NCBI GenBank assembly: GCA_973895155.1
Contig: OZ316893.1
Coordinates: forward strand, 13,842,359-13,906,358
From: Marsupella aquatica
Lineage: Eukaryota > Plantae > Marchantiophyta
Reading direction: 5' to 3'
DNA length: 64,000 nucleotides
Within the stretch, counting starts at the first letter, position 1. Each line of letters opens with the position of its first letter. Made by a program: the position numbers and the translations under genes. Shown here one piece after another: positions 8,799 through 31,377 of the stretch. The notes below the pieces were generated by a model. It had not been told where the DNA came from. It saw only the letters and a program-made list of their open reading frames with translations, and made no database searches.

Positions 8799-9290
8799 GA
8801 CAAATCTATCAATGTTAGGTTCATTGGAAAGCTAAAGAAACTGAAAAACTCATCATCCCCTTAGTACTTGACAAATTCTTTCAATGTTCAGTCATTAGAA
8901 AGCTAGAGAAATTTGGAAACTTATTATCTCTCTAGTACTTGATGAATACGCCCAATAGCACACATTAGAAAGCTAGAGAGATTATTGAACTCATGATCTC
9001 TTTAGTACTTGACAAAATCTAACATGAAATTTGTTAATGTCGGACTCAATGTTGGAAAGCTCGAAGAATTCATGAACTCGTGATCGTTGTAGAACTTGAC
9101 AAAGTTTCTTAGTGTCACACTCATTGGAAAGGCAGAGAATTCAACTCATTTGACAAAATTTGCTAATCTGAGGCTCATGAGAAACCTAGAAAAATTGCTA
9201 CTCATGATTTGGTTTGTACTTGACAAAATGTACCAATGTGATGTTCATTCAAAACCAACAGAAATTAAGAAAATCATGATCTTGTGTCTC
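8799..9290. repeat. Degenerate tandem repeat, about 7 units of ~55-85 bp (mode ~70 bp)
   Basis: Recurring TACTTGACAAA ... TCATTRGAAAGCTAGAGAA ... AACTCATGATC. Confidence 0.75.
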
Positions 9291-9533
9291 ACTCATCTCT
9301 CAATGAACCTTTTGTGCTAAACACTTACTTAGAGGCATCCTAGAAAATCATAACATTGAGAATGAATCTAAAATTGACAAATTTTTTCATTATAGTGGTG
9401 GACCTTGCCACCCAGCGCCCTCACCGATCCCAACACCCACACCCACACCCACACCTAAGTGTTCTTGGTGCCCAAACACCTCCACAAAACTTGTTGAGAA
9501 AGTAACTTGGTAACTTTTGCACCTCCAGCAGCC

Positions 9534-9892
9534 TGTCATGCCGAGGGATAGTACCTCTTATGCACATCGGCATGTCCCTCACATGCCCGCTAGGTATGTA
9601 GTTAGGGCTAGTGTACTACTTGAGTTAGCGACATGTTCTTATAGCAAATGCCAGGCGTTCTTGAAGCAAACGCGCTTGCTAGTGTGACGCCAGGACTTTG
9701 TTTACTTAGGGCATGTCTTTCTTTGTGGGTTTTTTTCAGTTCTTCTTGAATCGCCATTGACAAAGCTCAGACAGTGCTCGTCGGTTCCGTACACGGGATT
9801 CACACAGTGATTCGTTAGATGCTCCCAGCCGATCTTGGCATCCTGCCGGTTTTCGATTCGATTTCAGTACAATTGTTTCTCTTACGCCTTTT
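9534..9892 (+). repeat. Terminal repeat segment A (359 bp) of element A
   Basis: Homologous to 27921-28090 + 32843-32985 and to 37329-37684. Homology with 37329-37684 stops at ...TTACGCCTTTT. Confidence 0.9.
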
Positions 9893-9906
9893 ATTCAAGA
9901 AGAACT
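9893..9906 (+). promoter_or_regulatory. Putative self-priming primer-binding site
   Basis: ATTCAAGAAGAACT lies directly after segment A and is the exact reverse complement of 9738-9751 (AGTTCTTCTTGAAT). No TGG-type tRNA PBS at this position. Confidence 0.7.
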
Positions 9907-11546
9907 CTGATGAGGGGAAGAAGATCGGAGACGCTGTGCTTCTCAATTGCTCGAGACAATTGATATTTTTCCGTTGATGCCGGTGCAATTTCTATGGAAA
10001 AACGTTGAGCGATGGGGTGGAAGTTATGGCTTGTGTGTATACACTTAAGTATATACACTTAAGTCAAACAGGCCCCCCTCCCTCTTTTCCTTCGCGCTTT
10101 GCTTTCAGGGTTTTTCATTTTCTGGCCGCTGCCAACTGCTGCTTCAACGCCTGCCACGACCTTTTTCGGGCCATTTTTCGGTGTTCCCCGGACAATTTCC
10201 GTCGTGAGCTGTTCCCCGGCCGCGACCCCTTTTTCTTTACTCGGCAGCTGCCGTCGCGAGCTGCTTCCGGTCCGGCAGCTACTCTGCCTGTGTATACACA
10301 CATTCGGGGCCCATCAATGCCCCTGGGCCGTGCATAGGGCCGCGCGCGCTCCTTTCGCTCCGCCTTACGCACATAGGGCATCGTGCCCTGGTCTTAATAG
10401 GAGCTGTTGGCAGGAGGAGGAGCCGAGTACAAGGCAGCGCGAGGAGAGGAGGGGGCACGAGGCCCTATGCTGAATTAAAGAGGGAGGGGGAATTCAATTA
10501 GACTCCCTTCTCTTGGGAGTAGGTTCATCCGTGGCCAGGCAAGAGCGCAAGGAGAGGGCACGAAGCCCTATGAAGCATTAAAGGGGGGAGGGGAGGGGAG
10601 GGGAGGGGAGTATATACGACTCCTTCCCTCAGGAGTCCTTCTGCCAGGCACAGAGGCCCATGAAGCATTAAAGCAAGAGAGGAAGGGAAGTGAGTGTGCC
10701 AGAAGATCATTAAGAGGGCGGAGGGAATTTCCTTTTGGGAGCTCATAAGGAGGGGGAGGGGGCGCGAAGCCCTATGCAGGGCTCGAGCCCATTAAGAGGG
10801 GCCCATTTCTGCTCTTTCGCCTCTTCCTTTGCCACCCGACTGTCAGTGCCCGATTCTCCCTTTTTTGGCCATTTTCCACCTCTCGACATTTTCTTTCTCC
10901 GTGCCACCCGGCCTTGGTGTATACACATATGGGAGTGCATAGGGCCGTGTGCCGTCCCTACGACTCCCTTCGGCATTTTTCCGGTAGTGACCTCCATCGG
11001 GCCGCGACCTGCTTACGGCCAAGTTTTCCCCCCGGCCGCAACGACAACTCCAACAAAGGAGCTGCACGGATATTGGGCACCAGCCGGTGCATCTTATGTG
11101 TATACACATAAGGGAGGGACCCTTTCCACCGTTTTTGTTGTTTTTATTCCTTTTTTTAATTTTGACCCTTATAGGCAAGGCCAGTATACACATGGGGGCT
11201 AATTTCATTATGTTTAGCCCGGCCTCCTTGCCTCACCCCGTTTGCTTCATTGTGGGTTACATTTCCTAGCCTTGGGGTTGCCACACCTTTTTCTTGTCAG
11301 TTTCTTTCCCGTTGGCACCCCGGGTGAGCATGCAGCATGTCAGCAGAGGAACCAAGTCATAGCAGCACATCGCCACCGACACCTAGGTACCATTTACGGA
11401 GTGATCCACGACCATTGGTGCCAATTTCATTGGAGTCTCGGCAATTTCGATGACATCAACAGACAACAGCAGCACCCACACCACGCAACCCTTCTGCTAC
11501 ATTTGGCGGTCGCTTCACCACTACCCCAAAGCCTGTTATTGCTTCT

Positions 11547-13139
11547 TTGCCCTTTACTCCTTCTACATCAGTGGTTGTTCCAGCTTCTCCGACATACAGC
11601 ATGGACACCAGCCACTCATCTGGCCGCATTGAACGCTTCAGTGGGCGGTCAGGCACTGTTTCTTTGCGTGAGTTCAAATCCACTTTCTACACTGTCGTTT
11701 ACGAATTGGAGTTGAAGTACGGCAACAATTTCACAAATGCTTTTGCATTTAAGCAGCTAGCCAGGTATGTGCACCATGAGGCTTTGGATGTGTATGAGCA
11801 GCACTCTCAACGGCTGCTTGTTGTCACACAATTGCCTAACCCTGCCTATGCCAGTGCAATTGCGGCAGCATCACAATTGGCCTTACAGAATGCCATTGCA
11901 GCCCATGCTGCTGCTCCTGCCACTTCCCCTCCTACTCCAGTTCCTACCACTACGCCAGTTACTCCCACTATCTTGGCACACGCTACATCAGGCATTTCTC
12001 CCACCATTGATTCCCCTGCCTTTGCTAATCCAGTGGCTGAGTTTTTCCAGGTTCTTGAATTGGAATTCCCCATCAAGAGTGCTGACAAAATCATGCAGTT
12101 GGCCACCTTTGTGAGGCAGCGCGATGAAACCTTGAAGATGATGTATCGTCGGCTTCTCAAGCTGAAGGAGGACACCCAGAGCATCACTGACCTGGAAGTT
12201 TCTCATCGCTATCTTCGCGCATTGGAGGGCACACCAGCTCTCCATTCGCAAGTGTTGCAGCAAGTATTCTCAGAGTTTGGAGATAGCTACACCCTGCTCA
12301 ATGTCTATGACACTGCTGAGAAACTTGAGTTGGCCCATGCACATTATGAGGCCAGTATTGCGCGTCCACCGCGATCCAGGTACCAGGCTGCTGCTCCTAC
12401 AATGGCCACCCCTTCCCGTGTGCCACAGTATGCTTCCAAGACCAAACCAGCACATGCTGCTTTCATGCTGCCATCTTGCAACTACTGTGACAATCCTAAT
12501 CACAAGGCTAATGAATGTGATATTGTTGCTGAGGACCTGCCTTGTGATTTTTGCGGGCAAGTGGGCCACTTGGAGGCAGTTTGTTTTGCCAAATTCCCAG
12601 AGAGGAAGCAGCTACGACAACAGGCCACTCATCCTGCTCCTATTTCCACTCCCCCACCAGCTAGGAGGGCTCCTACTGCATCAATTGCTCCTCCTTCCAG
12701 TGGCAAAGCAACCAGTGCCAACAAATTGCCCAAGCAGCAACAGAAGCCACCAGCTCAGAAGGAGGCTCACAACGCACAGGCAACTCAACTCCAGTCTCTG
12801 ACTCATGAGGTTGAGTCCCTACGTGCCCAACTTGCCAACATCAAAGGCACGTCAACTGCCTCTGCTAGTCCTTCTCAACCGGTTGGTCACGTGCAACCCA
12901 TCCCTGGCCCAAGCACCACTGACAGTTCAGCACCTCTACCCCGCTCTTTCTATGGCTTGCCATTTGATGCTCATATGGGTGAGTGTGTGCTGTCCTCTGC
13001 TCCACAGCCTGGCCTTACAGCAAAATTTTCAGATTCATTTTGCCCTTCCTATTTTTCTTACCAGCAAGCCAGTGCGCCTCTCGTATTGCTCCCACACACC
13101 GCATTGTACAGGCTGATGGTCTTGCTGCCGGTCCTATGA
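11547..13139 (+). pseudogene. gag: Gag of element A (capsid-like region and two CCHC zinc knuckles); 3' end frameshifted
   Basis: IERFSG...LREFKSTF, QRDETLKMMYRRL, then CNYCDNPNHKANEC and CDFCGQVGHLEAVC. Likely start MDTSHSS at 11601. Confidence 0.85.
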
Positions 13140-13230
13140 CTAGAGCCAGGGGAGCTCGGGCTGTCTTGCCCCAATCTTTTCAGCCACTCACACTTGCTGA
13201 AGAGCGCACCTTGTTGGCGAGGGGGAGGGA

Positions 13231-14427
13231 GCTGCAGCTACATCCATTCCACCACCAGGTGCTGCTGACATTTCACAGAGAGTTATTTCTCCTGAGCTGC
13301 TTGAGCATGTCACCTCCGGTATGGCACAAAGGATTCTTACAACTCCACTTTTCAGTTGCCATGATATATAGCTGGATGCTAGAGCTGTCATCAGAGCGCT
13401 AGAGGGCTCACTGCATTCTTCATCAGCCCCTGTGACACCGGTTTTGGAGGTCCAATCTCATGTACATACTGGACCTTCTTCTTCTCCATTACATGCTTCC
13501 ACTGGTTTGGCTATCCCAGTACCAATTTCCAGTGGTAGAGATGACAGTATTGCTGCAGATTGTGTGACCAAAGCTACACTGGATTCTGGTCATGCTGCTC
13601 CATCTTTCCTGGCTATGCTGTTGAGTGGGCAGACCGTGGACACTAACTCCCTTCACAAGGTACCTCATCATTTGCCAAAAGTGGTGCCTAGTGACAGGAC
13701 TTTAGTTTCCACCACCATTGCCATTGTTGACAACATGAATTCAGCGGTCAAGTTGGAGGGTCACACTCCTCAGGTGGTCATGCTAGACATAGGCACTCAA
13801 CCAGTGATATTGGGCATTCAGTTTGCCAAGAAGATGGGACTACTGACTGATCACTTACAGCAATCCTGGTGGCACATTCGGACTGCTAGTGGCACTGTGG
13901 AGGACGTGTTGGGTGAGAGTTCTACTTTACTCACTCTCACTTTTAATGGAGGTATAGATCAGGAACTGCATTTCCCAGTCAGATGTTTGGTTACGTATGA
14001 TGTGCTCATTGGCCAGGAGGCTTTGTTCCCACCAGGTTTTACCAGTGACAACTGGCATGAGCATGCATACTACAGAGTTGATTGGCATACTGATGGCTCA
14101 CACTTGGGCTACATTCCCCTTGATTTGCATGGTGCCCATACACCTATGGCTCACCACTATGTGTTGAAAGCAGTGCACACAGCTACCTATGTCAACCACC
14201 CATTGCAGGATTGGATTGAGGAGGATGATGATGAGGTGGCTGCTGCACGTATAGCAGCACTTTCCATCAGCGTGGATCATCAACCAGAGGTGGTATTATG
14301 GCTCCAAGCAGCCCATGGACCTTTGGTGGCTGCATTACGCAAATTTGAGGACCTTGGGCAGCACAATGGACAACCGATAGCCCCAATCTTGAGCGCATCA
14401 GTTACATGGACTCCTCCTTCGGATGGC
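13231..14427 (+). pseudogene. Aspartic protease region of element A pol
   Basis: VVMLDIGTQPVILG (degenerate LD[T/S]G[A/S]) near 13780 and YDVLIGQEAL. Same frame as the downstream DNMT domain; one TAG near 13369. Confidence 0.75.
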
Positions 14428-15365
14428 CTTACATTGCTTGAGCTTTTTGGTGGCATTTCTATAGGCCTGGAAGCTCTCCTACAGTCTGGCATGGTGGTGA
14501 AGTAGTACATCTACGTGGACATTGATCCAGGTGCAAGGCACGTGGCTGAATCCCGTTTGCTAGAATTTTCAAAGCGATTTCCCCAGCAGTTTCCACATAG
14601 TGCATGGAAGTCTGCATTTTCTTTCTTCCCTCCAGATATCCAGCTTGTCCAGCACCGACACTTAACCCTTCTTGGCTCCCTTGATTTGATCATAGCTGGT
14701 TGGGAATGCCAAGGGTTTTCAGCTGCTGGTCACGGTGCTGGATTGCATGATTTTCGTTCTGGCCTTTTCACAGCATTGGTTCAGATTCTCACCTGGGCTC
14801 AATCCCTTTATCCTGCTGTTGGTTATATCATTGAGAATACTCCATCTCAGTTTGACCAGCGTCCACAGGTCAAAGAGGATTTCAGTGTGGTCCAGCACTA
14901 CTTGGGACCACCCCTTCTCATTGATGCAGTGCACTGTGGTTCTTATGCACATCATCTTTGTAACTTTTGGACTAACCTTGCACCACCTTCCTTGTTGGAG
15001 TTAGCTCTTCACCACACATCCAGGGACACTAACCTCATAGTGGACCAGATTTTGGATCCTAACAGTTCTTGCCAACCAATTACACGGCAAGAGCCAGCAC
15101 CTTGGTATCCAGCCAATACCATTGGACAGCCTCGTGCTACTTGGCCTACATTTGTGTCCTTTCCAGGTGCACATGCTTTTCAGGGTGATGGTCCTGGCCT
15201 AGTTTATCGACATTCTACCGGTACATGGGATGAACCTAGTCCTGAGGAGAGAGAGCGGGCTATGGGCTTCCAACCCGGTACTACAGGTCACACCAAAATC
15301 ACCAGGCTGGCCAGGAATGCTTTACTTGGCAGGGTAATGGATCTTCATGCTCTCACTTGGCTTCT
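14428..15365 (+). pseudogene. C5-cytosine DNA methyltransferase domain embedded in the retroelement pol
   Basis: Motif I LLELFGGI; motif II YVDID; motif IV DLIIAGWECQGFSAAG (Cys at 14707); RSGLF; motif VI YIIEN; motif VIII-like AHHLCNFWTNL; motif IX ERERAMGF; motif X LLGRVMD. One in-frame TAG at 14503. Confidence 0.9.
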
Positions 15366-17521
15366 GGTCACTTGCATCTTTTTCAGATGTACATTCATCC
15401 AGCATCAGGAGTTCCAGCCCTACCACTCCATGGTGCTGCTACATGGCATCCAGACCAGGTGCACTTACCTCTATTCAACACTCACCGCTTCAGTCCAAGT
15501 GTTGGGGGGGAGGAGGTCCCTTGTAATGTGGCTGACATTATTTCTGAGTTTCATGGTGTGGATCAGACCAGAGCAACAGATACAACAGGCCTTGGAGAGG
15601 CCTCATCACCTTATCAGCAGCATGCTAGCAGCTTGGGTGGAGAGGCTGGCACTTCTGGCTCTTCAAGCACGAGTACATCAGGTCCTATTCCTAGTGTTGC
15701 CAACTACACATTCATCATGGGCAACCACCTGAGTAAAAGACAGAAGGACCAGCTGCTGAATTTGCTCCTCAAGCATGAGAATGTGTTTGCTTTCTCTACG
15801 AAGGACTTGGGTAAGTGCAAGACTATGCAGTTCTCCATTGAGTTGGCTGATGAAACACCTATCTTTAGGCGGAGACACCGTTTGAGTAAGCATGAGTGGC
15901 AACTGGTGGATGAGAGGTGCCAAGAGCTCTATGAAGCTGGTCTTATTCAGCCATCTACATCAGATTGTGCAGCAGCTACAGTGATGCCAACAAAGAAGGA
16001 TTCTAGTGGATTGTGGATAGAGAAGCGCATGTGTGGGGACTACAGGCCACTGAACTTGGTCACACCCCAGGACAGGTACCCCATGCCACGGCCAGAGGAG
16101 CTATTTGACAGCATTGGAGACTCAGACATCTTCACTCTTGTGGATCTAAGGCAAGGCTTTAACCAGATTTTGCTGCTTGCAAAGGACCCCAAGAAAACAG
16201 CTTTCCATGGCAGTAACCAACTATGGGAGTGGTTGGTGATGCCATTTGGCTTGAAGAATGCGCCCATATTCTTTCAAAGAGTCATGGACCAGGTTCTTCA
16301 AGGTGCTGAGTTTCTGAAATGCTACATTGATGATGTGTTGGTCCACAACAAAGGATTTGACCAGCATCTACTTGACCTTGAGGAGCTATTCATGAGGCTT
16401 AAGAAGGTGAACCTAAAGATACACCCCAAGAAGTGTGAATTTGCTGTCAGATCAGTAGTATACCTTGGGCACCACATTCTTCCAAATGGAACCATGGCTC
16501 TCTGGGCCAAGGTGGTATCCATCTTGGAAATGCCCACTCCTACCGATGTTCACACTTTGAGGAGTTTTATTGGGTTGTGCAATTACTACCGGATCTACAT
16601 CAAAGATTTCAGCACCATTGCACACCCATTGTATGCTTTGTTGAAAAAGAATGTGACTTGGACATGGAGTACAGATGCTGAGGCAGCATTTGCCACTTTG
16701 AAGGAGAAGCTCTCAGAATACCCGGTGCTGAGAAGACCTGATTTCAGCAAGGTCTTTGTGCTACACACAAATTGGAGTGCCCTTGGGATTGGTGCCATTT
16801 TGGGCCAGCATGATGAGGAAGGTAAAGAGTACGTCATTGCCTATGCATCCAGGAGCAACAATCAGGCGGAGAGTCATTATTCTTCGTATAAGGGTGAATG
16901 CCTTGCTGTTGTGTGGGCTGTCATACATTACAGGCCCTACCTCTATGGGACCAGGTTTGCCCTCTACACCGACCACCAGCCCTTGAAGTGGTTGATGACC
17001 AACGACAAGCTTACTGGCAAGCTTGCTAGTTGGGCGCTCATACTCCAGGAGTATGATTTTGAGGTAATTCATAGGCCTGGTGTGACACATCAAAATGCTG
17101 ACACTATGTCCCGCAGCCCTTTGATTGCCTCTGATGATTCCTCAGATGCACGACAGGATTTTGACCAGGTTTCCATCCTGCCTACATTTCATGCATCTAC
17201 CTATCTTGCTTTGCTGCCATGCTACGTTGTTGACCAACTTGTGGTGGACATATGGGAGGACAACGACACTCTGAGATTTTTGCAGCATGGGGAGTACCCC
17301 ATACATGTTACTGCTGCCCAGAGAGACCAAATTCAGCAAAGGTCCAAGCGTTACTTGTGGAAGGGAGATAATCTCGTGCGCTACTTGCCAGACAGGGAAG
17401 TGGTGGTTCCACCCATTCATGAGAGGGTTGGCCTTATCCGTAAGGTACATTCTGAGCTTGGTCATTTTGGCGTTAAGAGGACTTACAGCCTCTTGGTCCC
17501 TCATTATCATTGGAGAGGCAT
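15357..17521 (+). pseudogene. pol: RT, RNase H and integrase N-terminal zinc-binding region of element A
   Basis: RMCGDYRPLN, DLRQGFNQI, VMPFGLKNAP, YIDDVL, YLGH; RNase H VLHTNWS...ECLAVVWA...YTDHQPL; HSELGHFG. Cut at WRG|MHG by element B. A 1-bp deletion near 15378 separates it from the DNMT frame; copy 2 (ORF 33705-33896, LVTCILFQMYIHP) is in frame there. Confidence 0.93.
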
Positions 17522-20500
17522 TGTGATGCCTAGACAGGAATCACTCGGCCGGTTAAGTGGGTAAAGCAGGAAGGCACCCTAGGAACACCTTAGTATAGTG
17601 ACAAAACAAGGAAAATATAAACAATTAGGGGCAACCATGGAACCCGGGCAGAGGCCGGAGGTAAGGCTGAGGGTGAAAACCCGATTAGGGTTAGGGCGCG
17701 TTAAGCGTCGGCGGCTAGGAAGGATCAACGGGAAGAAGGACCGGCAGAGGAGAGGGGTAAGGAGCGCTTGCAGGAGATGGTGGCTCATTTGCGAGCACGA
17801 ACTAGGCAGACGACTACGGGAGGCCAACTACTGTCAGCTGCTTAGGCAAGCACTCGGGGAGAGAGTAGATACCGACGATCAACCTAAGGAGGGTATGAGC
17901 AACGTCAATCAAGCGGCACATTTCTGGGGATGCCTGTTCGAATGGGCAACTGAGTACATCAAGACTTACGAGGACGAGGAGTCAGAAAGGGCAGCTCGAG
18001 AACGGCAGGAGCTCGCTCGATTGTGGGAGCTGCAGAAGACGGCTTTCTTAGGAGGCAAACTCATCAAGGACGAGTTCCTGTGGACGCCTACTTCCAATCA
18101 ACTCGACGATCTTCTGTTTTGCAAAGACAGCGTCGTCGGCATCCGAGAGGCCATCAAGAACTGCAACGACATACACTGGGAATTAAAGGGTAGCACGGAA
18201 AGGTGGACCCGGGCAACGGTGCTAGGAGAAACCTCCACGGCAGCAGAGATGAAGAGGAAGGGAGCCGTCAACGATGAAGCCACCCCGGCAAAAAGAACGA
18301 GGTCGGCGGCACCAAAGAAGCCAGCCGAGCAGCAGAGCAGGAGGCAGGGAGAAGCCGAAGAGGAGGAGGTCGATCCCATCAAGGCCATTCCAACCAAGGA
18401 TGACACCTGGAAGGGCTGGGCGGCAACCCTACCGGTGGAGGTGCAACTACATTTTGCACGGGAGGAGGATGCATGCTTTACGGCCATGCAGACCAAGAAG
18501 TACCAAGGCTTCATGGCCGGATCCGGCTTGGAGGCCTTTGTAAGATTACCATGGCTGAAGCCGGAGGTACCGGAGTCAGACCTATTAGAATTCGTGGGGT
18601 CATGGGAACCCGAGACCAATTGCACGAGGATATATGGGAAGGATTTCTATCTTACTCCCAAGGTGATTGCCGAAGTGTTTGGCTTGCCGATGGGCAATAA
18701 GACCAAAGTTGATACCAGGAAGACCTTGCCTGACAAGGAGTTCCGGTCGTTCCCCGGGCCATCAACGAAGAATGGCTTCTTCCGGAACACCTGCACCAAC
18801 CCGCACATAGGAGAGATGATCGACTTCTTGCGGGTGACCATGCATTGTAACTTGCCGAGGGCAGAGATCGGCAAGGCACAGGTCTATCTGGCAGAAAGGC
18901 CAGACCCAAGCCGGGACTACAACGGGTACCTCCTCAACCAATTGAAGAAGATCTTAAAGGAGGAGCAGCAGGTAATCGGCATGGGGAGCGTGTCGCGGCT
19001 TGGCTATCACATACCGCTGTTGTGCCGGTATGCCAGAGGTCAGACTTTTGCCCCGGTACTTCCCCTGCAGGTAAGGGCACCCGAGGAAGCTCCAACGCCG
19101 AGGCCGTTGGCTGAGAAGCCTCAACCACCTGTTAGTCCTACGATCGAGCAGGTGTTTAGGCCCAGGAAGGAAGACTTGCCGATGCAGCAACCAGGCATGC
19201 AGAGTCTGCTGAAACTACTGGAGAAAGAAAAGAAATCGGCATCGGCAACAACAACGGCAACGGCAACAATGCAGGACACTACTACAGAGGTAGGCCTACA
19301 CCGGCTCACAAGAGAAAACCCCTTTGCTGGAGACAAGGAGAGAATCAGGCCGGAATCCAAGCCAGGTATTCGAATGTACGTGGGAACCTCAAGCTCCGAA
19401 TCTGAGGCAGAATTGCCTGAAGCTCCTACCGACGAAGAGGAGAGGGAGAAGCCGGAAATCCAAGAGGTAGAGGAGGCAGTGGAGGACTGCAGCCATGATA
19501 ATTCCGGCTATGGGTCGGACCATCACGTTCCAGGAGTAAGGACCTGTGGCCGGTTTGTCCCCACACTTCCAAGGGTAGTGCGAGGGGACCCCAACCAGCA
19601 GAGTAGCCCTGAGTCTCCCCCACCAGATGTTGCTCCCCCGAGCTTCGACGGCATAAAACAGACGGTGCAGGAATTTCAGGAGCGAATCAAGCAGGAGGAA
19701 GAGGCCGCCCTGGCTAAGGAAAAGGATTTACCAGGAGGAGATTGGCCGGAGGACATCAGGCGGCTAGCCGAAAAAGGAAGCAAACCTCTAGCCACGATTG
19801 AAGAGATCCGCAGGACGGCTTGGGAGCAGAGGCCACGATGGGCGATGCCGATCACTTCTACTTACTCCACCTACGCTAAGAATAGAGCCATGGAGTATGG
19901 TGAGATGTGTGGGGAACTTGCGCTCGGCATCTTTGGAGAGGAGTTGGAGGTAGGACCCTTTTTTCATAGGGAGCAGTTGGAGAAGCACCAATTAGAAGAA
20001 GCGGTGGCTTTAGAGAGAAGCAAGAAGGACGAGGTCATTCGGCGGCTTAGGAGGATGGAAGCCGAGATTGAAGATCTAAGGGCGGCCAAGAAAGCCCAAG
20101 ATGAACTGCGGATTAAACGACATGAGCTGAACATCATGCAGGGGCAGTTGGACGCCGCGCAGGCTGATAATCAGAATATCAAGGATAAACTGACTCAGAC
20201 ACAGGAAGAGTTGGCCGACACGATCAAAGAAAGGGAAAAGTGGAAGCAAGAGCTGAAGAATACAGAGGAGGCCCACATAACAGCCAACAGCCGGGCCATG
20301 GCGGAGACCCAAAGAAAGGAGTGGGCGTTGAAAGGGGAGCTCGAGAAAATCCGCGGAGCCCTTGAGCAGAAGGAGGTCGAGTTAGGGAAATCCTATCAAG
20401 GGATTATGGCGCTGCAGCAGGAGCTTGCGTCCCTGACGGCCAGCTTCAAGGCCGACCTAAGGGAGAAGGACGAGATGCTCGAACAGACTTACGCCAAGAT

Positions 20501-22157
20501 GAACCAGATGGAGTCTGTCATCATTGCAGAGCTCGACAAGGAGCTAAGAGCAACCCAGGAGGAGAAGGCTACCTTGAAGAAGGAATTGGAGGAAGCCCAC
20601 AGGGAGCAGGAGGAGGCCAAAAACGAGCTGGAGGGGGCACGTAAGGACCTGGATGAAACCCAAGAGGAGTTGGAGGAAATCACGAGGAAGATGGAGAACC
20701 TACAGCGGCGGGCCGACAACCAAACAGAGCGGCTGAAGAAACAAGCCGCAGTATTTAAATGCTTAGCTGCAGCAGGTCCATCTCCTGTTGGGACAAACCA
20801 GTTACCAGGGGTGGTAATTGCCGAAGGACAAGCCGCGCCACCTGCACCAGTGCCGGAGGTAAGTGGGAAGGGGAAGGGACCAGCTGCCGAGCCACCAACG
20901 AAGAAGAAGCGGAAACCTTCAGGGTCAAGGAGTAATACGACTTCACAGGCCGTGGTGATCAAGGAGGTAGACCTAGCACCGACCCCAGACAGGGTCACGG
21001 CTAAGGATCCAACTCCCCTAGGGGAAGGGGAAGCCGAAGCCGTGGGAGTGGCTGAGGCCGAAGCCGTGGGTATTGCCGAGGCCGGTGTCGAGGCTGAAGC
21101 CGAAGGTGGACCCAGTCAGGCCGATGGAGAGTTGACTCGGTCAAGGGCAGGTAATCTGTCAGTAGGCGGGCCAACGGCAGTGGCTGAGGAGGAAGTATTG
21201 GGGGCATCCATTGAGGATCCACCACCGGTGTCGTGACGGTGCAAGGGCGCCGTTCCTTTTAGGGAGGGCGGACGTGGAGGGAGGAGGCGTGAGTGGGCAG
21301 GGCGGGCACGGATCTCCACGTTTAGGATTAGGATCAGAACCAAGAGCGGCCCTGACACTTAGCTTAGTGGGATTGCGGTCCCACTGGTAGGAGCAACACT
21401 TGTGCTCCTGCCTTGCTGTACATAGGTAGATTCGGGCAAGTAGATTACTGTTAAGTAGATTAGGCTTACGATGCAAAGAAGGGCGGATCCACTACCAGGA
21501 TAAGTACCTGGGCAGCGGGGAGCTCAGGGCCTCTTCTTTAGCAAGTTTTTAGTTTGCACCAGCCGGGCTGGGATCAAGTAGTACGAGAAGCTCTCGGTTA
21601 GTCATACAGTGACCCTTGTGTATATTCATGTTTCCTCATGCCTAAGAGCTGAATAGAGTTGGCCTCACGGCTTAGTTCGCAGAACTTGTGTATGAGATGT
21701 ACTGTTTGTATGGCAAGTGCATGGTATGACTCAGTCATAATGAGTCATTTTGCTATTTGTGTGTCGCATTAACTTGTGTGAAGAGTGCCCACATCAACAG
21801 AAGGAAGGAAAGTAAGCAGGGGAGTGAGAGTTGGATGTGTCGAGCTGAGAGAGGTCTTAGCGGCTTAACCAAGCCTATTGGGGATCATTCCGGCGGCGGA
21901 ATCCAAACATACCTAACAAGACGGAGGGGAAGACAGGGGAAGACAGGGGAAGGCCTATATTAGGCCGGCTACGTATCTCATGACCCGATGAAGGATCTGT
22001 CCAGTATATGTGTGTAAAATGTTAATAGTAGTAGTAGAAGGTTAGCAGCGTCCCATGCCGCTAAGCCGCGGAAACGGCCTCGCCAAGCACGAAACCTGCG
22101 GGAATCGGCTTGAGCTGGGGGGTTTCTTGGGTTTAGGGAGCCATGGGACGCACCACA
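17522..22157 (+). mobile_element. Element B copy 1: 4636-bp TG..CA unit with a single large ORF (giant solo LTR or LTR-less passenger)
   Basis: Ends TGTGATGC...GCACCACA; 5-bp TSD GGCAT (17517-17521 / 22158-22162). The empty site is visible in copy 2 of element A (TGGAGAGGCAGGCATGGCC, ~36183). Confidence 0.92.
17637..21236 (+). CDS. ~1200-aa protein: region resembling plant retrotransposon accessory (PMD/Transposase_32-like) domains, acidic linker, long coiled coil
   Basis: Uninterrupted ORF. ATG-GAA-CC (MEP) start is conserved in copy 2 (40790, minus). Motif LLEFVGSW...IYGKDFYLTPKVIAEVFGLP; E/K/Q-rich heptads ~20000-20740. The domain assignment is a resemblance only. Confidence 0.8.
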   Translation: MEPGQRPEVRLRVKTRLGLGRVKRRRLGRINGKKDRQRRGVRSACRRWWLICEHELGRRLREANYCQLLRQALGERVDTDDQPKEGMSNVNQAAHFWGCLFEWATEYIKTYEDEESERAARERQELARLWELQKTAFLGGKLIKDEFLWTPTSNQLDDLLFCKDSVVGIREAIKNCNDIHWELKGSTERWTRATVLGETSTAAEMKRKGAVNDEATPAKRTRSAAPKKPAEQQSRRQGEAEEEEVDPIKAIPTKDDTWKGWAATLPVEVQLHFAREEDACFTAMQTKKYQGFMAGSGLEAFVRLPWLKPEVPESDLLEFVGSWEPETNCTRIYGKDFYLTPKVIAEVFGLPMGNKTKVDTRKTLPDKEFRSFPGPSTKNGFFRNTCTNPHIGEMIDFLRVTMHCNLPRAEIGKAQVYLAERPDPSRDYNGYLLNQLKKILKEEQQVIGMGSVSRLGYHIPLLCRYARGQTFAPVLPLQVRAPEEAPTPRPLAEKPQPPVSPTIEQVFRPRKEDLPMQQPGMQSLLKLLEKEKKSASATTTATATMQDTTTEVGLHRLTRENPFAGDKERIRPESKPGIRMYVGTSSSESEAELPEAPTDEEEREKPEIQEVEEAVEDCSHDNSGYGSDHHVPGVRTCGRFVPTLPRVVRGDPNQQSSPESPPPDVAPPSFDGIKQTVQEFQERIKQEEEAALAKEKDLPGGDWPEDIRRLAEKGSKPLATIEEIRRTAWEQRPRWAMPITSTYSTYAKNRAMEYGEMCGELALGIFGEELEVGPFFHREQLEKHQLEEAVALERSKKDEVIRRLRRMEAEIEDLRAAKKAQDELRIKRHELNIMQGQLDAAQADNQNIKDKLTQTQEELADTIKEREKWKQELKNTEEAHITANSRAMAETQRKEWALKGELEKIRGALEQKEVELGKSYQGIMALQQELASLTASFKADLREKDEMLEQTYAKMNQMESVIIAELDKELRATQEEKATLKKELEEAHREQEEAKNELEGARKDLDETQEELEEITRKMENLQRRADNQTERLKKQAAVFKCLAAAGPSPVGTNQLPGVVIAEGQAAPPAPVPEVSGKGKGPAAEPPTKKKRKPSGSRSNTTSQAVVIKEVDLAPTPDRVTAKDPTPLGEGEAEAVGVAEAEAVGIAEAGVEAEAEGGPSQADGELTRSRAGNLSVGGPTAVAEEEVLGASIEDPPPVS

Positions 22158-22162
22158 GGCAT

Positions 22163-23335
22163 GCATGGCCAGGTTCGAGATGTTATTGCCCGGTGTAAAC
22201 AGTGTGATAGGGTGAGGACTTCTTTCACATCTCGGCAACCCACATTCATCCACTCCCTATTCAGGGCATGTTTTATTGCTGGTCATGTGATTTGGCTGGA
22301 GAATTACCCCTCACGTCTCGGGGTAATCTCTACATCATGATCATGATAGAGCATTTCTCCAAGTGGATAGAACTTGTGGCATTGCCGGATAAGACCTCCT
22401 GTAGCACCAGCCAGGCATTCCTGCAACAAGTTCTCAGTCGCTTTGGAGTTTGTGCAGAATGTCTCACTGACCAGGGCTCAGAGTTTAGAGGAGAGTTCCA
22501 AGAGCTGCTTGATCAGGCCCTCATTGATCATCGTCGGACATCACGAGATCACCCACAAGCAGATGGCTTGGCAGAGCGCATGGTTCAGACATGCAAGAAG
22601 GGTCTCCGGAAGATTTGCCTCACCAAAAACAAGGAGGATTGGGACCTGGCCTTACCCTACATTGCCATGGGGTATAGGATGTCCAGACATGCATCACTGT
22701 CTAACTTTTCTCCCTACTTCTTGTTGTTTGGTCGTCACCCAGTTCCACCTTCTGCTATTGCTGCTCACATGCTTCAGGTGGTAGACTTGGATTCAGCTGT
22801 GACTTGGTCTGATGTGATCTCTGAGAGGGCTGCCCTATTCAGGAGGGTTATGCCCATGGCCATGGAGAATTTGGCCATTGCACAACACAGGGACACACTG
22901 CGTTATGCACACACACGAGGGGGCACTTTTCAGCCGAAGGTCAGGAGGTTTGATGTGGGAGATTTTGTGTACTTGCAGCGGCAAGCTAACAACACCCTGG
23001 ACACCTCTACCAGTCGTACTATTCTCAGGGTTAAAGCTATTCGACCGTCTGGAGTGCTAGAGTTACAAGGGGCAGATGGGCGCATAATTGCTGACAATGC
23101 CAAGAATTGCGCCCCTTGTCATCTGCCTAACCTGGATCCCACCATTGTGACTTCTACTTGGATTCCACCTATGGACTACCCTTGCAAAGTGTGTTTGCGA
23201 ATTGATGATGCTGACCAGATGCTGCTGTGTGACAATTGCAATGGAGGGTACCATCTTTTCTGCCTTCGGCCTGAACTTACCCAGATGCCAGAAGGGTTAT
23301 GGTTTTGCCCTTCCTGTGCTCCACGTGCTACCTGA
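22163..23335 (+). pseudogene. Integrase core and C-terminal PHD finger of element A
   Basis: CKQC, WSCDLAG, IEHFSKWIE, LTDQGSEF, DGLAERMVQT, FSPYFLLFGR. C4HC3 PHD CKVC..MLLCDNCNGGYHLFCL..WFCPSC at 23183-23317. Frameshift near 22245. Confidence 0.92.
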
Positions 23336-23367
23336 ATTTTCTTCAGCCCTCCTTTTGGCTGTGGTCT

Positions 23368-23550
23368 GGGGGGGATACATAGGTTTACACCTCCACTACG
23401 TACATACCACTTCATTTGCTTTTTCTTGGCACTTGTGAATGTGATTGGACTTTTTCTATGCATGTTGGTTGCTAGCAGCTTGCACATATGCCTTGCCGGT
23501 GACTTATATGTTTTCGATACACTATGGCTACGATACTATATGTCACGACA
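23368..23550 (+). repeat. G7 PPT-like tract (23368-23374) and terminal segment B (23375-23550)
   Basis: Segment B is homologous to 37151-37326 and 37685-37861 and ends TGTCACGACA. Confidence 0.85.
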
Positions 23551-26500
23551 AGCCACTCCCATACAAAGCCACACTTGCTTCCTAACGTGACGGTTGCTCA
23601 ACAGTCCTCACTATCTACATAAGCAACCAAGCACCTTGGTAAGTAACCCATAGGATCTAGGCCGTCCAAGTCTAGCATCCTAACTCAAGCTCATTGGTAA
23701 GTAGGTCAGCGAATAGATCGAACCCCGGGCCCACATGGCCTTGCCATAAACCAAAGCCAGAGTCAGCACCCATTGTTTGTCCAAAACAACGTCTCTTTGG
23801 GTGCCGCCCATGATTCCCCAATTTCTATCCGTCACTAGTTGCCTGCCCTGCCCCCAAGATATGCTCATGGCCCAAATAGTTTAGTTTGTCCCAAAGCTTG
23901 TCCTAAAACATCGGGACCCCAATCAGGACCAGATTGGTCCCCGACTCTAGCAACCAACTCCAAGATTCTTGATCAAGTAATAGTCTAGGGGCCACATGCA
24001 CTTGAATGTCAACCTCCATGCCTACTCTACTTTGCCTTCCCAATGCAAGCTCCCGTGGGAGACTGGACATGGCTTGGCTGTTGTTTTAGCAAGATTTGGC
24101 AAGTGAGCGAGATAGTCCCCACAAACCCCAAGAATCCATGGCACCCCCAGACTCAGCTGAGCTCAAGAGGATGTATTCTTTCTCAAGAGATTTCCAACAC
24201 AACCAACAAGTCCCCTAACAAACTTCCGTTGAGGAGTTATCGTTTTTTTTGTTTGGCGTTCCTCTGGTGTTGCGACCCTCGCGGCTCACGACTTGGACTC
24301 GCCCTTGGCCCCCAGAGAGACACCACTCCCCTCATATATGCTTTGGAGACCTGACACCCCTGGACCGACTTTGGTTCCCTATATTTGGCCTTTAACTTGG
24401 ACTCCAACCCACACGCAGGGGCACGCAACTAACTTGCTAGCTAGACGTCCGTAGGTGGAGTGCCTTAGCCCGTTGTGATTGGGCTGACCTAGTGATCATG
24501 CTTAGGCCCTCAGAACCAGTTGTCACTCAAGGATCTCAAATGGTCGCACCTGGGCCACGCTGTATTTCATGCGCCAAACATCCATTGCGCATGAAGTAAA
24601 TTTTGCTAGCCTTGGGTCCAAGAGGAGCTTTCACTCAAGCCCTCAAAGCTCAAAGTCCATCTGGGGGTCCGGACGGTCCAACCTAAGCCCACCCCCTTCC
24701 CATAACTTGACCAGTCCCCAACTAGTCTAGGTCCTTAATGTGCGTTACCAGCTTAGCGCCTTGCCCTTGCTACTAGTGCCATGCCTTGTTGCCCACTAGT
24801 CTCCCCATACTTAGTCCCCATCGAATGGCCGTTCGGAGGGCTTGGACCATAAAGGAGCTCGGCGTTAGTGACGTCAGTGCTAAGTGTTAAGGTAGTCAAG
24901 TTCCACGACTATTACCAATGAGATCATGTGTTGAGATCCATCCCAAGATCCATTTGGTTCCTATAAGTTTGAGAAATGGGTTGAGGGCCATTTGGACTCA
25001 AACTTCCAAGTTACCTACAATCAAATGTTGAGAGGAATGAAATAAAGAATTTGGAAACGACATTCCTGTATTGGAATGTTTGGGTTGGGTTTATAATTAG
25101 ACAATGATTTGGAGACAAATAGGAGATAAATCATGAGTGGCGACATGGAAACAATCTACAATTGAAGTTGATTTAGACAATTAGCTTTGATGAACATGAA
25201 GGTACAAGCAATTCAAAGATAGGGATAAGTAGGATGAGCGCTAATACCAAGATGCAAATTTCTCTCTTCCAACTTACTCCATGACCCTACATGTTTTGTT
25301 CACATAATCATAGGTGGTCACGTAAGGCGCATGCAATGAGGCATTTGACCTTGCAAATAAACTTGATACTCACAACACTTAATGTTTTTTCCAAGGACAT
25401 GTCTCTCATTGAATTCTTGGGGGGGAAGACTTAAGAATTTTCTCAGAAGAACAACAGGGTCTTTTAAATCCAATTTTGAGACTTATATAAGAACACAGGG
25501 GTCTTTTTAATCAAAATTTTAGAATATTCCAAATATATATGGCTTTAAAAATAAGAAAAAATCTTACATTTTAGGGAGGCGCAAGGACTAAAAATGTTGC
25601 AGGTGAGAGGGAGGTCTCTATATAGTGAGACCCCCCAAATTGAAGTTAAGAATCTTTATAGGGAGATGGGGTCCACAAACTAATTGAGTTATGGTTCAAA
25701 AGACCTGTTGATTCCTCTAGACTCCAAGTTTTTGGTTGTGCTGCCTATATTCACCTTGAGCAGACACACAAGCCTAAGTTGGATCCCAAATCTAAGAAAT
25801 GTATTTTTTTGGGCTTCCGTCCCAGGCAAAAAGACTATGAATTGTAAGATCCTATTGCTTTCAAGGCAATTGTGAGGAGAAATGTTGTTTTGATGAAGAA
25901 TGGTTTTCAAGATCCCAAGATGATCATGAGGAGGAGGCATAGGAGCCCACTAAGGTGGAGCTTGATGGTGTTGAGGAAGTTGTTCACCCCTTTCATTGGT
26001 AGAGGTGCAGTTCCTCAACTAAGGAGCTCCACAAGGGCCAATTTGGTCAACCGCCTGATAGATTTGGTTTTCTCAGATCCTTGTGTTCACTTGGTTGAGC
26101 ACGACAATGATCCCACTTGAGGTCATTTTTCTCACTTAGGATGAAGACCTCTCTCGCTATGAAGAAGCTAGATGGGCTTTCCAGAGAAGTATAAGTGGAT
26201 GGAGGCAATTTTGAAGGAAATGAATTCTTTGAAGATGAATTCAACATGGCTTCCAATGGACATGCATTGCGGGAAGACATTCATTTTGTGTAGAGGGTTG
26301 TACAAGAAGAAACATAATGGCATGTACATGACAAACCTTGTGGCCAAAAGGTACACCCAAAAGGTCCAGAGGGCTTGGACTACACAAAAAAATTCTCACC
26401 AAGTGTCAAATTTGCTACTATTCGTGCTTTACTTGCAACTATGGCATTCTATGATCTTGAGTTAGATCAAAATAATGGATATAAATAATTACTACTTTCA

Positions 26501-28414
26501 TGCATGGATTGTCTAATGTGGAGATATATATGACTCAGCTTCCAAATTTTATTGACGAGAAGACTAGACACTTGGTGTGTCAACTTTTGCATTTGTAATA
26601 TATGGTTTGAAGTAGAGTCCCCCAAAGTGTAATGTGTTCCGTCCCATTGTCCTCTAAACCCAAAAACCTTCCTAAACAAGTCGATTCCTACCGGTTTTGG
26701 TCTTGCCAAGGCCAATTCCACTACTTATTGGCATGGGATGTTGCTAACTTCTTACCCACATATACTGGACAGTTCCTTCATTGGGTCATGAGGTATGTTG
26801 CCGGCCTACTCTATGCCTCTCCTATTCTTCCCTTCCTGGTCGTTCGTCACGTATATTTGGATTTTGCCCCCGGAATGATGCCCAATTGGCTTGGGTAGGC
26901 GCTAAGCCCTCTCTCAGCTCGACACATCCAACTCTTACTGCTTCTTAGTTACAACTTTTCTTACCCCCTTTCTCTCCTATAGTTGGTGTGGGAAATCTTC
27001 ACACAAGTTGATGCGACACACAAATAGAAAGATGACTGTTACTGATTAAGTTATACTTGACGCACATCCATAAAATCAGTACTTCTCATACACAAGACCT
27101 GCAAACTAAGCCGATAGGCCAACTCTATTCAGCTCAAGAGTGTGAGGAAACATGAATATACGCAAGGCTCACTATATAACTCATTGAGAGCTTCATTTAC
27201 TAAATGATCCCAGCCTTTGCTGGTGCACTAAAAATTTGTTAAGAAAAAAGCCCTGAACTCCCTGCTGTGCAGGTATTTATCTTGGCAGCGCACCTACTAT
27301 TTCCTTGCAGCATAAGTCTAATCTATTCTAACTATACTCTACCTATATACAGCGGGGCAAGAGCACAAGTGTTGCTCTTACCAACGGATCCGCAATATAT
27401 CCTACTAATCTAAGTGTAAGGGCCGCCTCTTGGCCCCGATCATAATCCTAAATCTGGAGGTTTGCGCCTACCTTGCCCACTCATGCCTCCTTCCTCCATG
27501 TCCGCCCTCCCTAAAAGGGATGGCCCTCCACCACCGTCATGGCAGCGATGGCTCATCCCCAATGAACGCCCCCAATCCTCCCTCTGTGGCCAATGTCATA
27601 GGTCCATCCTCTAACAGATTACCTGCTCTTGACCGGGTCAACCCCGCATGTTCTCGGCGTTCTTTGGTCCACCCCCGGCCTCAGCCTTGTCTTTGGCTTC
27701 CGTTGCCACCATGGCCTACAAAAGTGGTGGGACTGTTATTGAGGCATCGGCACTAGTAGTCCCAACATCCCCCTCCTTGCCATAGCAGTATTCCTCATAG
27801 GCTTGTCCTACGAGGCGGGTTGTCTCCTCTTCCCAAGGTTGCGTTTAATGCCTATCAACAATTGGCATCCTTGTGTCAACTCCCGTCATGGCCACTCCTA
27901 GTTGGTCTTCTTGACCGACTTGTGATGTCGAGGGACATTGCCTCCTATGCACATTGGCATATCCTTCTCATGCTTGCTAGGTATGTAGTTAGGGCCACTG
28001 CTTGATTAAGCGACATATTCTTATAGCAAATTCAAGACATTCTTGAAGCAAACGCGCTTGTTAGTGTGACATTGGGATTTTGCTTACTTAGAGCACTCCC
28101 ACCCGGCCCCGCCAAATTGACGCGGCATTGTCAAAAGTAGCCAGCCAAATGAGACTCGGCGTTCCAGCCTTAAGACCCGCCCCGGTCACATACCCCACCG
28201 CTGCACCAAAATTCTTGCACCAAACACTCACGTAGTTCGAACTGGGCGAGCTTGAGTTAAAACCGCACATTGAGAAATGAGTGATTCAAAACTTGGTCAC
28301 AATGTTGATTTGAAACACGACAACCATCAAATGTCATAGTTTGTGCGGGCTTCATCTCAGTTCTTTTGCTTGTCATCACCAATCTTTTCAAGAGTGTCGA
28401 GCCCAAGCAATGCC

Positions 28415-29755
28415 ATGACCTCGCACCAAGATTGGCGTGTAAAATTTCAGAAGCAGATACAAGATGAATTGGCAGAACTTGAAGTAGAGCAAAAATTGTG
28501 GGAAGATACAACAATCAATGGACCACTGAATCTGATGGACTGGTACAATCGGCACAAGGTATGTGTGCATGGTGGATCAAGGCCAGGGAAATCACCTAAC
28601 ATTGATCGTGACTCGGAGGTAGGGCACAAACGTATATGGGATGACTATTTTTGAGTCAATCCTATTTACACAGATGCTCACTTTAGGTGTCGATTTAGAA
28701 TGAGAAGGCACATGTTTTGGAAGATTCATAATGCTATCTGTGAACACGATGAATATTTCATCCAAAAGCGAGATGTTGCTGGAAAATTGGGTCTTTCTTC
28801 AATTCAGAATATTACTGCTGCTCTTCGGCAGCTTTCACTCGGGGTTTCTGTTGATGCCATGGACGAGTACTATTGAATTGCAGAAACTACTGCATTGGAC
28901 TCTCTAAAGAATTTTTGTAGGGCCATACGTGAGGTGTTTGAGGCACATTATCTCAGACAACCCACCAAATCTAACTTGGAGAGACAATTCTTGATCAATG
29001 AAGCCAGAGGATTCCCTGGAATGTTTGGCTCTTTAGATTGTATGCACTACAGATGAAAAAATTGCCCTGTTGCCTGGCAAGGCCTTTTCGCAAACAAAGA
29101 CAGGGAGAAATCAATTGTCCTAGAAGCAATAGCAGATTAGTCATTGTGGTTTTGGCATGCATATTTTGGACTTCCTGGATGCAACGACGACCTTAATGTA
29201 CTGGACAGATCACCCTTGGTGAACAATATGCTCAGGAGTGAAGCACATAACTGCAAATTCAAAGTCAATGGAGTAGAGTATAATAGATACTACCTCCTCA
29301 CAAATGGGATCTATCCAGAATGGTCAATTTTTGTTAAAACTATTGCGCTGCCACAAGGAGAGGCCAGGAAGTGGTTTGCAAAATGTCAGGAATGAGCAAG
29401 GAAGGATGTCGAGAGAGCATTTGGAGTTCTTCAAGCGAGATTTGCAATTATTCAAAATCCTGCACGAATTCATTCTAGTGCTGTGATCAAAGACATATGC
29501 ATAGCATGTGTTATTTTACATAACATGATTGTTGAGGACAAAGGAGACGAAAAGCTGCCTCAAGATTGGGACCAAAGGCCAGGGGCAAGGAGCCATGGAA
29601 GCCTACTTCCGACTTCTGACTGGAAACAATATATGGCAGCCACTCGAACAATCCATGATTCAGAGACACATTACATGCTACGAAATGATTTAGTTGAGCA
29701 CTTGTGGAATCTGAAAGGCGAAGGTCATAGATTTGATTATGTCAGTCAAGTTTAG
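28415..29755 (+). pseudogene. PIF/Harbinger DDE transposase (HARBI1/ALP1-like) with several stops
   Basis: FRCRFRM, GMFGSLDCMH, WHAYFGLPGCNDDLNVLDRSP, YYLLTNGIYPEW, RKDVERAFGVLQARF, ACVILHNMIVED, LRNDLVEHLW. Confidence 0.92.
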
Positions 29756-30884
29756 AAACTAGGCCCAAGACAGACATGTACGAATGTGTTAAAACTTGTA
29801 TTGAAACTTGCACCATTTGTGCTCCTTCATTCAAATTGACTGCCTACAAAAGTGGCATTGTGTACAACCCTACCTCTCTAAATAAAATAAAATTCCTGCT
29901 TGTAACTTACACAATGCTGAACAAAGTCGGGGCTAGAGGTCAAAGCCAAGCTGTAAAATTGGCAATTCCACTTGACTAAAACTATCCCAGAGTGCCTGAA
30001 AATCTTTGCTCACTGTAGAGCTTGTGTAAATACACAAAAGTGGCATTATGGATTACTCAATCCTTTGGCCACTTCCACACATATCCACCATACCGTCACC
30101 CATCATCCGAATCCCCTTCATCTTCCTTATGTTCCTCCCGAGCTATTTCTCTCTGTCATTGCTTCCCATCGCTTGTATCTTTGCTCTGCATGTTCACGTC
30201 TAGCAGCCTCCTCGGTCGAGAGTTGCTCCGAAATTGACGCCCTCCACTGCTTCCTGACCTCTTCCTCATGACTGATCCAGGATGAGGGCTGTGGAACTAC
30301 GATTGCTGGTGCAGGATTAGGTCTTGTTGGACCAGCTCCAGTACGCACTCCCTCACAAGGTTTCAATACAGGAAGTGAAAGGTTTGAATGATCGGCAGCA
30401 GCCTCATCAGCAAGGCCAGGCACGGAAGATCCTCTCGCACTCTCCGTTGCTTGAATGCTTCCCTAAACTCTGCAAAGTGATGGTAATGAAATAAAGCAAA
30501 GCTTGACAAGGTAGTAGACAAAGCTTTCACGAGATCGATGAAATGAGGCAATAACAAAGTGCGAGCAAACACCTGCAGCCAAGGTCTTGTAGAGATTCTG
30601 TGAGGGTCGGGGCTGATGTTGTATGTAGGCGTTTTTGTACTATAGGAGAAGATTTTGAGAAGGTCCCTGTCTCTCCTTTCGTGGTCTATCGCTGGTTCAC
30701 GGTTTGCAAGGGCTCTCAATGTACTCAACACGGGAGAAATGAAAGAATGGACGCAGTGTCATTTATTACTTAAATCCGTTCATGAGAGCACACACATGCT
30801 TCTCATTATTAATACATAGCAGAGGAGTCCTCTGTACAAATTAAGAAATCTCCACTAGGAATAAAAGATGAAACTCTGCCTCAA

Positions 30885-31312: not shown

Positions 31313-31377
31313 CTGCCTCAAAAAGAAAACAAATCTTCTTTTATAGACTCCAAAACTATTGCAAAACCCAATTCACA

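Follow-up and report, generated by a model that had tools for sequence, protein, structure and literature searches.

The Tf1 and Tf2 retrotransposons of Schizosaccharomyces pombe, which belong to the Tf1/sushi/Tcn1 group, dispense with a tRNA primer, the 5' end of their own RNA being complementary to a primer-binding site (PBS) that adjoins U5 (PMC7175516, PMC4600332, PMC5341516). The Tf1 primer comprises 11 nt, with RNase H cutting between bases 11 and 12, and in LTR-type copying the tips of the cDNA are set by the polypurine tract (PPT) together with the PBS (PMC7175516). Self-priming has been predicted for 12% of plant elements, and among the lineages named in the text of that survey it is assigned only to Tcn1 and TAR (Neumann et al., PMC6317226). 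KnitGypsy-Dnmt3 of Klebsormidium nitens combines gypsy domains with a C5 methyltransferase in pol, and the legend of Fig. 4c describes its repeats as arranged as in DIRS (de Mendoza et al. 2018, PMC5890265). The terms 'PBS' and 'split direct' do not occur in the main text of that paper, and the section on the element is silent on priming, a PPT, an internal att site, a duplication or a mechanism; the main supplementary PDF lies outside this coverage and may bear on novelty (PMC5890265). A 2026 preprint names a streptophyte Gypsy-DNMT3 without treating its repeats in the available text (10.64898/2026.05.21.726589). The elements Ngaro and PAT, which show the DIRS order, have an A1-ORFs-B1-A2-B2 layout along with isolated A-B units and use a tyrosine recombinase (PMC8547959), and HIV-1 integrase tetramers cleave the palindromic 2-LTR junction internally (PMC1905944). 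In Chlamydomonas, the active gypsy element Gypsy-7a_cRei carries a PHD and is drawn with 'LTR subparts' and without solo LTRs in the published text (10.1101/2022.06.16.496473).

The window analysed here, i.e., the whole 64-kb stretch of DNA from the liverwort Marsupella aquatica, holds an element that resembles the Tf1 group in the predicted pairing of its RNA 5' end with a PBS adjoining U5. It differs from that group in its predicted primer of ~12 nt, in having a PHD finger and not a chromodomain, in the methyltransferase within pol and in lacking a full LTR pair, the U5 end at its PBS reading AT and thus being no insertion end. The sequence-only reading of this locus had called it Tf1-like, a label that suits the priming mechanism (a complement of at least 11 bases, with the PBS adjoining the U5 end) but not the clade. 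With KnitGypsy-Dnmt3 the window element shares the gypsy domains, the C5 methyltransferase in pol and an A-B-A-B layout and, judging from the published description and from relatives in Calypogeia and Closterium, the two very probably represent the same lineage. The window family and a sister family described below also share with Ngaro and PAT the order of repeats, and one sister locus has the isolated A-B unit; in place of the tyrosine recombinase, however, there is a DDE integrase, accompanied by a PPT, a PBS, TG..CA ends and a 4-bp duplication. In the open-access literature (Repbase reports and subscription journals lying outside this scope) we found no description of self-priming, of an internal cut site or of their link in this clade. 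What is known is self-priming, from Tf1, and the A-B-A-B layout, from the KnitGypsy-Dnmt3 legend; what would be new is the priming trick in a new clade, where it exposes an unusual route of insertion.

Organization of the two window elements

Element 1 (9534-23550) is a 14-kb Ty3/gypsy element with TG..CA ends and a 4-bp target duplication, in which Pfam comparisons give the order gag, protease, C5 methyltransferase, RT, RNase H, rve integrase and PHD. The succession protease-RT-RNase H-integrase and the DDE core of the integrase, with the second Asp and the Glu at a distance of 35 positions, are those of Ty3/gypsy elements; the paired full LTRs of that group (a left one followed by the PBS, a right one after the PPT) are present in neither window element. 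Element 1 has no terminal direct repeat at all, bearing only segment A (361 bp) at its left and segment B (176 bp) at its right. Its features are as follows, L151 being a distant relative treated further below:

9530-9533, no strand: left target-site duplication (AGCC).
9534-9894, plus strand: segment A, whose initial TG is the left insertion end; its putative roles are the second part of U3, then R and U5.
9703-9711, plus strand: box TACTTAGGG, a non-canonical TATA whose place is taken in the sister family by TATAAAAGG.
9738-9751, plus strand: 5' arm of the inverted pair; 9738 is the predicted transcription start and 9738-9749 the predicted self-primer.
9893-9906, plus strand: 3' arm, made up of A's last two bases (9893-9894) and the 12-nt PBS (9895-9906).
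11454-13139, plus strand: gag-like ORF with a weak zinc-knuckle match (E 0.008, below the Pfam cut-off).
13372-14505, plus strand: aspartic-protease region (E 0.007, below the Pfam cut-off), with an equivalent in L151.
14506-15732, plus strand: C5 cytosine methyltransferase region (PF00145, E 1e-5; in L151, E 7e-12).
15246-17564, plus strand: RT, RNase H and the start of the integrase (zinc-binding part).
17522-22157, plus strand: unrelated nested element (TG..CA ends, 5-bp duplication GGCAT, 1217-aa ORF) that splits the integrase.
22211-23335, plus strand: integrase core (rve) and C-terminal PHD finger.
23368-23374, plus strand: G7 polypurine tract adjoining segment B, found at the same place in relatives.
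23375-23550, plus strand: segment B, with an AT start at the PPT and a CACGACA end that is the right insertion end; putatively the first part of U3.
23551-23554, no strand: right target-site duplication (AGCC).

Because it is an A-int-B copy with an interrupted integrase, element 1 is most likely inactive. Among named proteins the closest are those of the liverwort Calypogeia fissa (82%) and, at up to 48%, those of the alga Closterium, and a scan of viral contigs with a single protein gave no match. The long leader before gag (10032-11200) contains repeated GTGTATACAC palindromes and GCCCTATGC-type inverted repeats. A tandem array of ~70-bp units (8799-9300) lies just left of the element, and to the right of this array there is a separate high-copy repeat (9394-9470) whose left edge (9393-9394) borders varied flanks.

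Element 2 (27921-37861) is ~90% identical to element 1 in pol and is flanked by the target duplication GACT/AACT (27917-27920 and 37862-37865). Its right end, G7-B-GC-A-B, supplies the second copies of both segments:

27921-32983, plus strand: left A, split by a Harbinger-type transposon (28091-32839); the PBS and gag are deleted.
37151-37326, plus strand: B1, after the G7 tract.
37327-37328, plus strand: GC spacer (2 nt) of the internal CA-GC-TG palindrome; predicted integrase cut site.
37329-37686, plus strand: A2, the second A copy, with the 5' arm at 37527-37540 bearing one change.
37687-37861, plus strand: B2, directly joined to the end of A2 and closing with the CA end.

At 37330 the G of the palindrome's TG reads A in element 2, and G in most copies. 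The transposon at 28091-32839 is of the PIF/Harbinger type and sits in the TACTTA box of the left A, with 14-bp terminal inverted repeats, a TTA/TCA duplication, and Plant_tran/DDE_Tnp_4 and NAM-associated ORFs. The element nested in element 1 belongs to a pair of 4.3-4.6 kb copies (17522-22157 and, on the minus strand, 40905-26633, the latter hosting element 2). Both have TG..CA ends, 5-bp duplications and a single long ORF, which in the first copy comprises 1217 aa with only a weak coiled-coil-type Pfam match. Neither an RT nor an inner repeat was found in these copies, which may represent either a solo LTR of great length or a non-autonomous element; having no shared self-complementary pair, PPT or inner repeat, the nested 4.6-kb element was set aside as unrelated.

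Insertion ends, repeat copies and joints

The closest comparison is with a sister family of 80 metagenome loci that has the same domain order and an RT typically ~78%, and up to 81%, identical to that of the window element, while its A and B gave no blastn hit to the window A and B. TG..CA ends and a 4-bp duplication characterize both window elements and 14/14 complete sister insertions (the sister duplications being exact in 11 and with one mismatch in 3, two of the rows after a register correction of 1-2 bases). Insertions run from the start of A to the end of B, taking the form A-int-B-gc-A-B or A-int-B: the sister right ends, 30 independent ones after removal of L057 (cut by the contig end) and L061 (a solo A-B) from 32 clusters, consist of B-gc-A-B in 15 and of B alone in 15, and the A-ORFs-B-A-B arrangement recurs in element 2 and in L168, a relative of L151. 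The A2|B2 joint and the repeat layout of element 2 and the relatives bear out two earlier claims of the sequence-only reading, viz., that the end of A is the U5 boundary and that the repeats are permuted. In all four families compared (window, sister, L151 and L152) the palindrome CA-GC-TG joins the two insertion ends, i.e., the B end and the A start, head to head. The PPT and the PBS, on the other hand, frame the unit B-gc-A, the tips of which read AT..AT and not TG..CA. The predicted primer site fixes the start of the minus strand and, with the PPT, makes B-gc-A the copied unit; insertions end inside that unit, and the palindrome seems to supply all insertion ends. The internal cleavage known from HIV-1 (PMC1905944) differs in being a side reaction at joined cDNA tips, whereas the palindrome of the window family is inherited inside the repeat and has a 2-bp spacer.

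The two junctions behave differently in the sister family. The B|A spacer is 2 nt long in 15/15 copies, whereas the A|B joint is altered in 8/15 independent copies, each time differently (p=0.002 against 0/15 for the spacer; p=0.015 without the two large deletions), a contrast that fits an integrase cut inside the repeat followed by host end-joining. A1 is closest to its own A2 in 6/8 rows, the remaining two being a single insertion seen twice. The B copies of one element differ from each other by 0.101, as against 0.135 between elements, with no grouping by position in the between-element distances (B1-B1 0.127, B2-B2 0.138, B1-B2 0.135), and the own B2 ranks first in only 5/15 rows. The pattern of repeat distances and joints is predicted by a re-copying of both repeats from one template with subsequent new joining of the tips. 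In some elements the own repeat copies also differ by indels: in L009, L023 and L050 the difference is a 15-bp end unit, in the L045/L064 insertion a 20-bp duplication, and such differences need later slippage or two templates. Left ends of the form A-B-gc-A number 0/24, as against 15/30 right ends of the form B-gc-A-B (p=2.5e-5); their absence is unexplained, since a symmetric two-repeat circle should yield them too, one possible reason being that the left repeat would become double-stranded first and hence capture the integrase.

This absence bears on an alternative that we regard as unlikely, in which self-priming is true but the A-B-A-B layout arises by the route put forward for DIRS, Ngaro and PAT, with the RNA extending into B2, template switches between repeat copies rebuilding the ends and the A|B joint being inherited, so that host end-joining plays no part. 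From such a route no A-B-gc-A left ends are expected, and none occur; it would also accommodate both the indel differences in some B1/B2 pairs and the identical layout of Ngaro (PMC8547959), but it sits poorly with the mutual differences among the eight altered A|B joints, with the lack of positional grouping among B copies, and with the rve integrase and 4-bp duplications; a tyrosine recombinase (PF00589) was matched in none of the 10 listed L151 ORFs, nor in the scanned ORFs of the window and L152.

Two further observations concern the repeats. The unit at 16837-17315 of L061 is a solo A-B with TG..CA ends and a 4-bp duplication (CAAT), i.e., the counterpart of a solo LTR. In the insertion shared by L010 and L058 (3662-3950) the left A is inverted relative to gag, which is either a rearrangement or an assembly error.

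The inverted pair at the end of segment A and its relatives

The perfect complementarity claimed by the sequence-only reading holds: 9893-9906 is the exact reverse complement of 9738-9751 (AGTTCTTCTTGAAT) over 14 nt, with no further pairing past either end, and 9738 is, as stated there, the A of TCAGTT. The description of TCAGTT as initiator-like is to be refined, the motif being present at 9738 but unconserved in relatives, where only a pyrimidine-purine step persists at the predicted start (23/24 sister copies). The placement of the 3' arm directly after A needs a similar correction: the arm does lie at the end of A, but alignment of 9533-9894 with 37328-37686 (the inner A copy of element 2) puts that end at 9894, so that AT (9893-9894) belongs to A and the PBS proper is the 12-nt stretch 9895-9906. 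A 14-nt primer was accordingly rejected, its last two pairs falling within A, and the predicted primer is ~12 nt long. Six perfect inverted repeats of at least 14 nt with arms at most 400 nt apart occur in the 64-kb window, so a 14-nt pair is by itself not rare. The rarity of this one is its position, with the 3' arm at the end of repeat A: among 3000 dinucleotide shuffles of A none has a complement of at least 13 nt to the site at A's end (maximum 12).

Other copies of the window family have the same PBS after the end of A (loose ends in 5 contigs of run X1, agreement 0.9). Across contigs of four coded runs, A starts and B ends border varied flanks, what comes after the end of A is either B or the window PBS, and the window 5' arm is present in most copies. 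Summed contig depth is ~10-50x higher over A (9538-9911) than over the leader past the PBS (9912-10300) in 4/4 runs; depth is no copy number, and the excess might stem from numerous solo A-B units or from non-autonomous partners. A shows no visible derivation from a known RNA, as Rfam gave no match in 9500-10300 and ARAGORN detected no tRNA anywhere in the window.

The sister family has the pair at the same place, again with the PBS adjoining the end of A. In its 24 independent left ends (kept from 28 A copies found, leaving out L025, which is not a left end, and L034, L058 and L045, whose insertions are already in another row; L013 was missed by the filter) 293/336 cells are Watson-Crick. Position 5 is T-A in 23/24 copies as against C-G in the window, and position 10 is A-T in 24/24 as against T-A. 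Own arms pair no better than shuffled partners within this family (p=0.23), i.e., there is no covariation among its decayed copies, and the evidence for compensation consequently consists of three between-family contrasts. Such compensatory changes between relatives, named in the sequence-only reading as a check on the pairing, are found in the sister family, L151 and L152.

The last two come from 76 loci in prokaryote assemblies, five of which have both integrase and PHD (L151, L152, L154, L155 and L168), with L154 and L155 stopping short of the repeats. L151 (RT 54% identical to the window, intact ORFs) has a perfect 13-bp pair in which 10/13 letters differ from the window in ungapped register; 13 is attained in 1/3000 shuffles, and the pair lies 29 nt downstream of a TATA-like word. 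The end of A is fixed in L151 to within ~2 nt only, as L168, with its B-GC-A-B, puts it within ~2 nt of the 3' arm. L152 (RT 41% identical) has a 12-bp pair with 10/12 letters as in the window and both changes compensated; 2.3 kb of this locus contain no other such sites, the end of A was not located and both arms overlap TATA-like words. The pair lengths in the window, sister, L151 and L152 families are 14, 14, 13 and 12 bp, respectively, and all four have the at least 11 complementary bases between 5' repeat and PBS by which self-priming is recognized. Four of four ordinary two-LTR control elements give a self-complement of only 4-7 nt, and three of them have a TGG-type PBS.

In a midpoint-rooted tree of 30 rows, which comprises neither a named Tf1-group sequence nor one from K. 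nitens, the window, sister, L151 and L152 families cluster with the Calypogeia and Closterium rows in a single supported RT group (100/99). An alignment scan yielded 70 loci at 27-43% identity, of which L081-L087 served for a repeat and domain check and three of these for the tree. No chromodomain was matched in the window, L151 or L152, each of which has a PHD finger instead, and the C5 methyltransferase lies inside the gypsy pol of the window element, the sister family and L151.

Several observations on these loci stand apart. L151, L152, L168 and others are eukaryotic retrotransposons within prokaryote genome assemblies, L151 being a circularly collapsed contig with its ORFs intact. In L151 (7228-7255), and likewise L168, the predicted start is spanned by a 12-bp hairpin that was seen in none of the other families; it might form only in the 3' A copy and so conceal that copy of the primer sequence. 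Sister copies, e.g., L004 (3842-3885), have a hairpin of ~10 bp after the PBS, for which L012 and L051 show paired changes as judged by eye; this is a possible packaging or priming element.

The promoter context agrees with a start at the 5' arm in the sister family, where TATAAA lies 28-33 nt upstream of the predicted start in 24/24 copies (32 nt in 19). In the window family the expected place is occupied not by TATAAA but by the non-canonical box TACTTAGGG, 35 nt before 9738 and 32 nt before the corresponding position in the inner A of element 2. The predicted fold of the window helix is fragile. The helix is not in the minimum-energy fold of 9738-9960 (z=0.54) and, depending on the chosen 3' end, is probable at 4/7 ends, reaches ~0.6 at one and stays at or below 0.03 at two; it holds in 12/18 sister folds, 6/7 of L151 and 3/3 of L152.

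We consider it highly likely that the 14-bp pair is a self-priming helix, because it persists with compensated or wholly different sequence, is missing from the controls and, in the sister family, has the expected TATA spacing. That the helix is real but structural, a stem for RNA folding or packaging that resembles the retroviral U5 inverted repeat, with a host tRNA or tRNA fragment priming at or near the site, strikes us as improbable: half-tRNA PBSs do occur in ~2% of plant elements according to the surveyed text (PMC6317226), and three of the four families have similar arm sequences, a likeness that a fixed host primer would promote, but in the window, L077 and L151 the 32 nt around A's end contain no TGG, the PBS and the cis arm change together between families (wholly so in L151), and the sister 5' arm starts at the distance expected from the TATA. 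Both arms also contain TTCnnGAA. We take this to be the core of a heat-shock element, and the very remote reading of the pair as chance or as a by-product of two such inverted motifs, for which the six inverted repeats of the window, the 8 of 14 bp supplied by a palindrome in the sister family and the lack of within-family covariation might speak, is largely refuted by the perfect, motif-free pair of L151 and further opposed by the 5-6 bp of pairing past the core, the coincidence of the 3' arm with the repeat boundary across three families and the lack of such pairs in the controls.

A proposed life cycle and its implications

Given the self-priming helix and the ends within the repeat, we propose transcription from 9738, with the first ~12 bases of the RNA pairing with the site directly behind A, whereupon RNase H may cut near base 12 and free the primer, with a transfer to A2 during copying. 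LTR-type copying from the self-primer and the G7 tract would yield a linear DNA that carries B-gc-A at each end. An integrase cut at CA-GC-TG, staggered by 2 bases, could then generate two CA-3' ends with 2-base overhangs and, if the left site is used and the blunt tips are joined by the host before or after insertion, the product would be A-int-B-gc-A-B, predicted to be the sole form able to copy again. The dead-end form A-int-B might derive from a one-repeat circle, from cutting at both sites or from a later B-by-B deletion. Palindromic 2-LTR circle junctions are cleaved by retroviral integrases, and the circle junctions of IS3/IS30-type elements offer an analogy for insertion through an internal junction. 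Taken as a whole, the scheme of self-priming combined with an integrase that cuts the internal CA-GC-TG palindrome rather than the cDNA tips is in our judgment probable. A wider proposal, toward which we lean with less assurance, is that these elements represent a deep green-plant gypsy clade with copying uncoupled from insertion, in which priming is tRNA-free, the tips are not integrase substrates, the cut at the inherited CA-GC-TG is obligate and host end-joining builds A-int-B-gc-A-B. Because half of the copies have no terminal repeat, programs that search for LTR pairs are predicted to miss this clade.

Self-priming, so far tied to the Tf1/sushi/Tcn1 chromoviruses and one copia lineage, on this reading very likely reaches a gypsy clade without a chromodomain, in four divergent families. 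The scheme offers a testable mechanism for a repeat layout that was noted but left unexplained in 2018, and the clade may provide a natural case for the old question of whether joined or circular LTR DNA can serve as a regular substrate for integration. If the wider proposal is true, a DDE integrase acting obligately on an internal junction would constitute a new LTR life cycle, which would also explain the DIRS-like repeats of KnitGypsy-Dnmt3.
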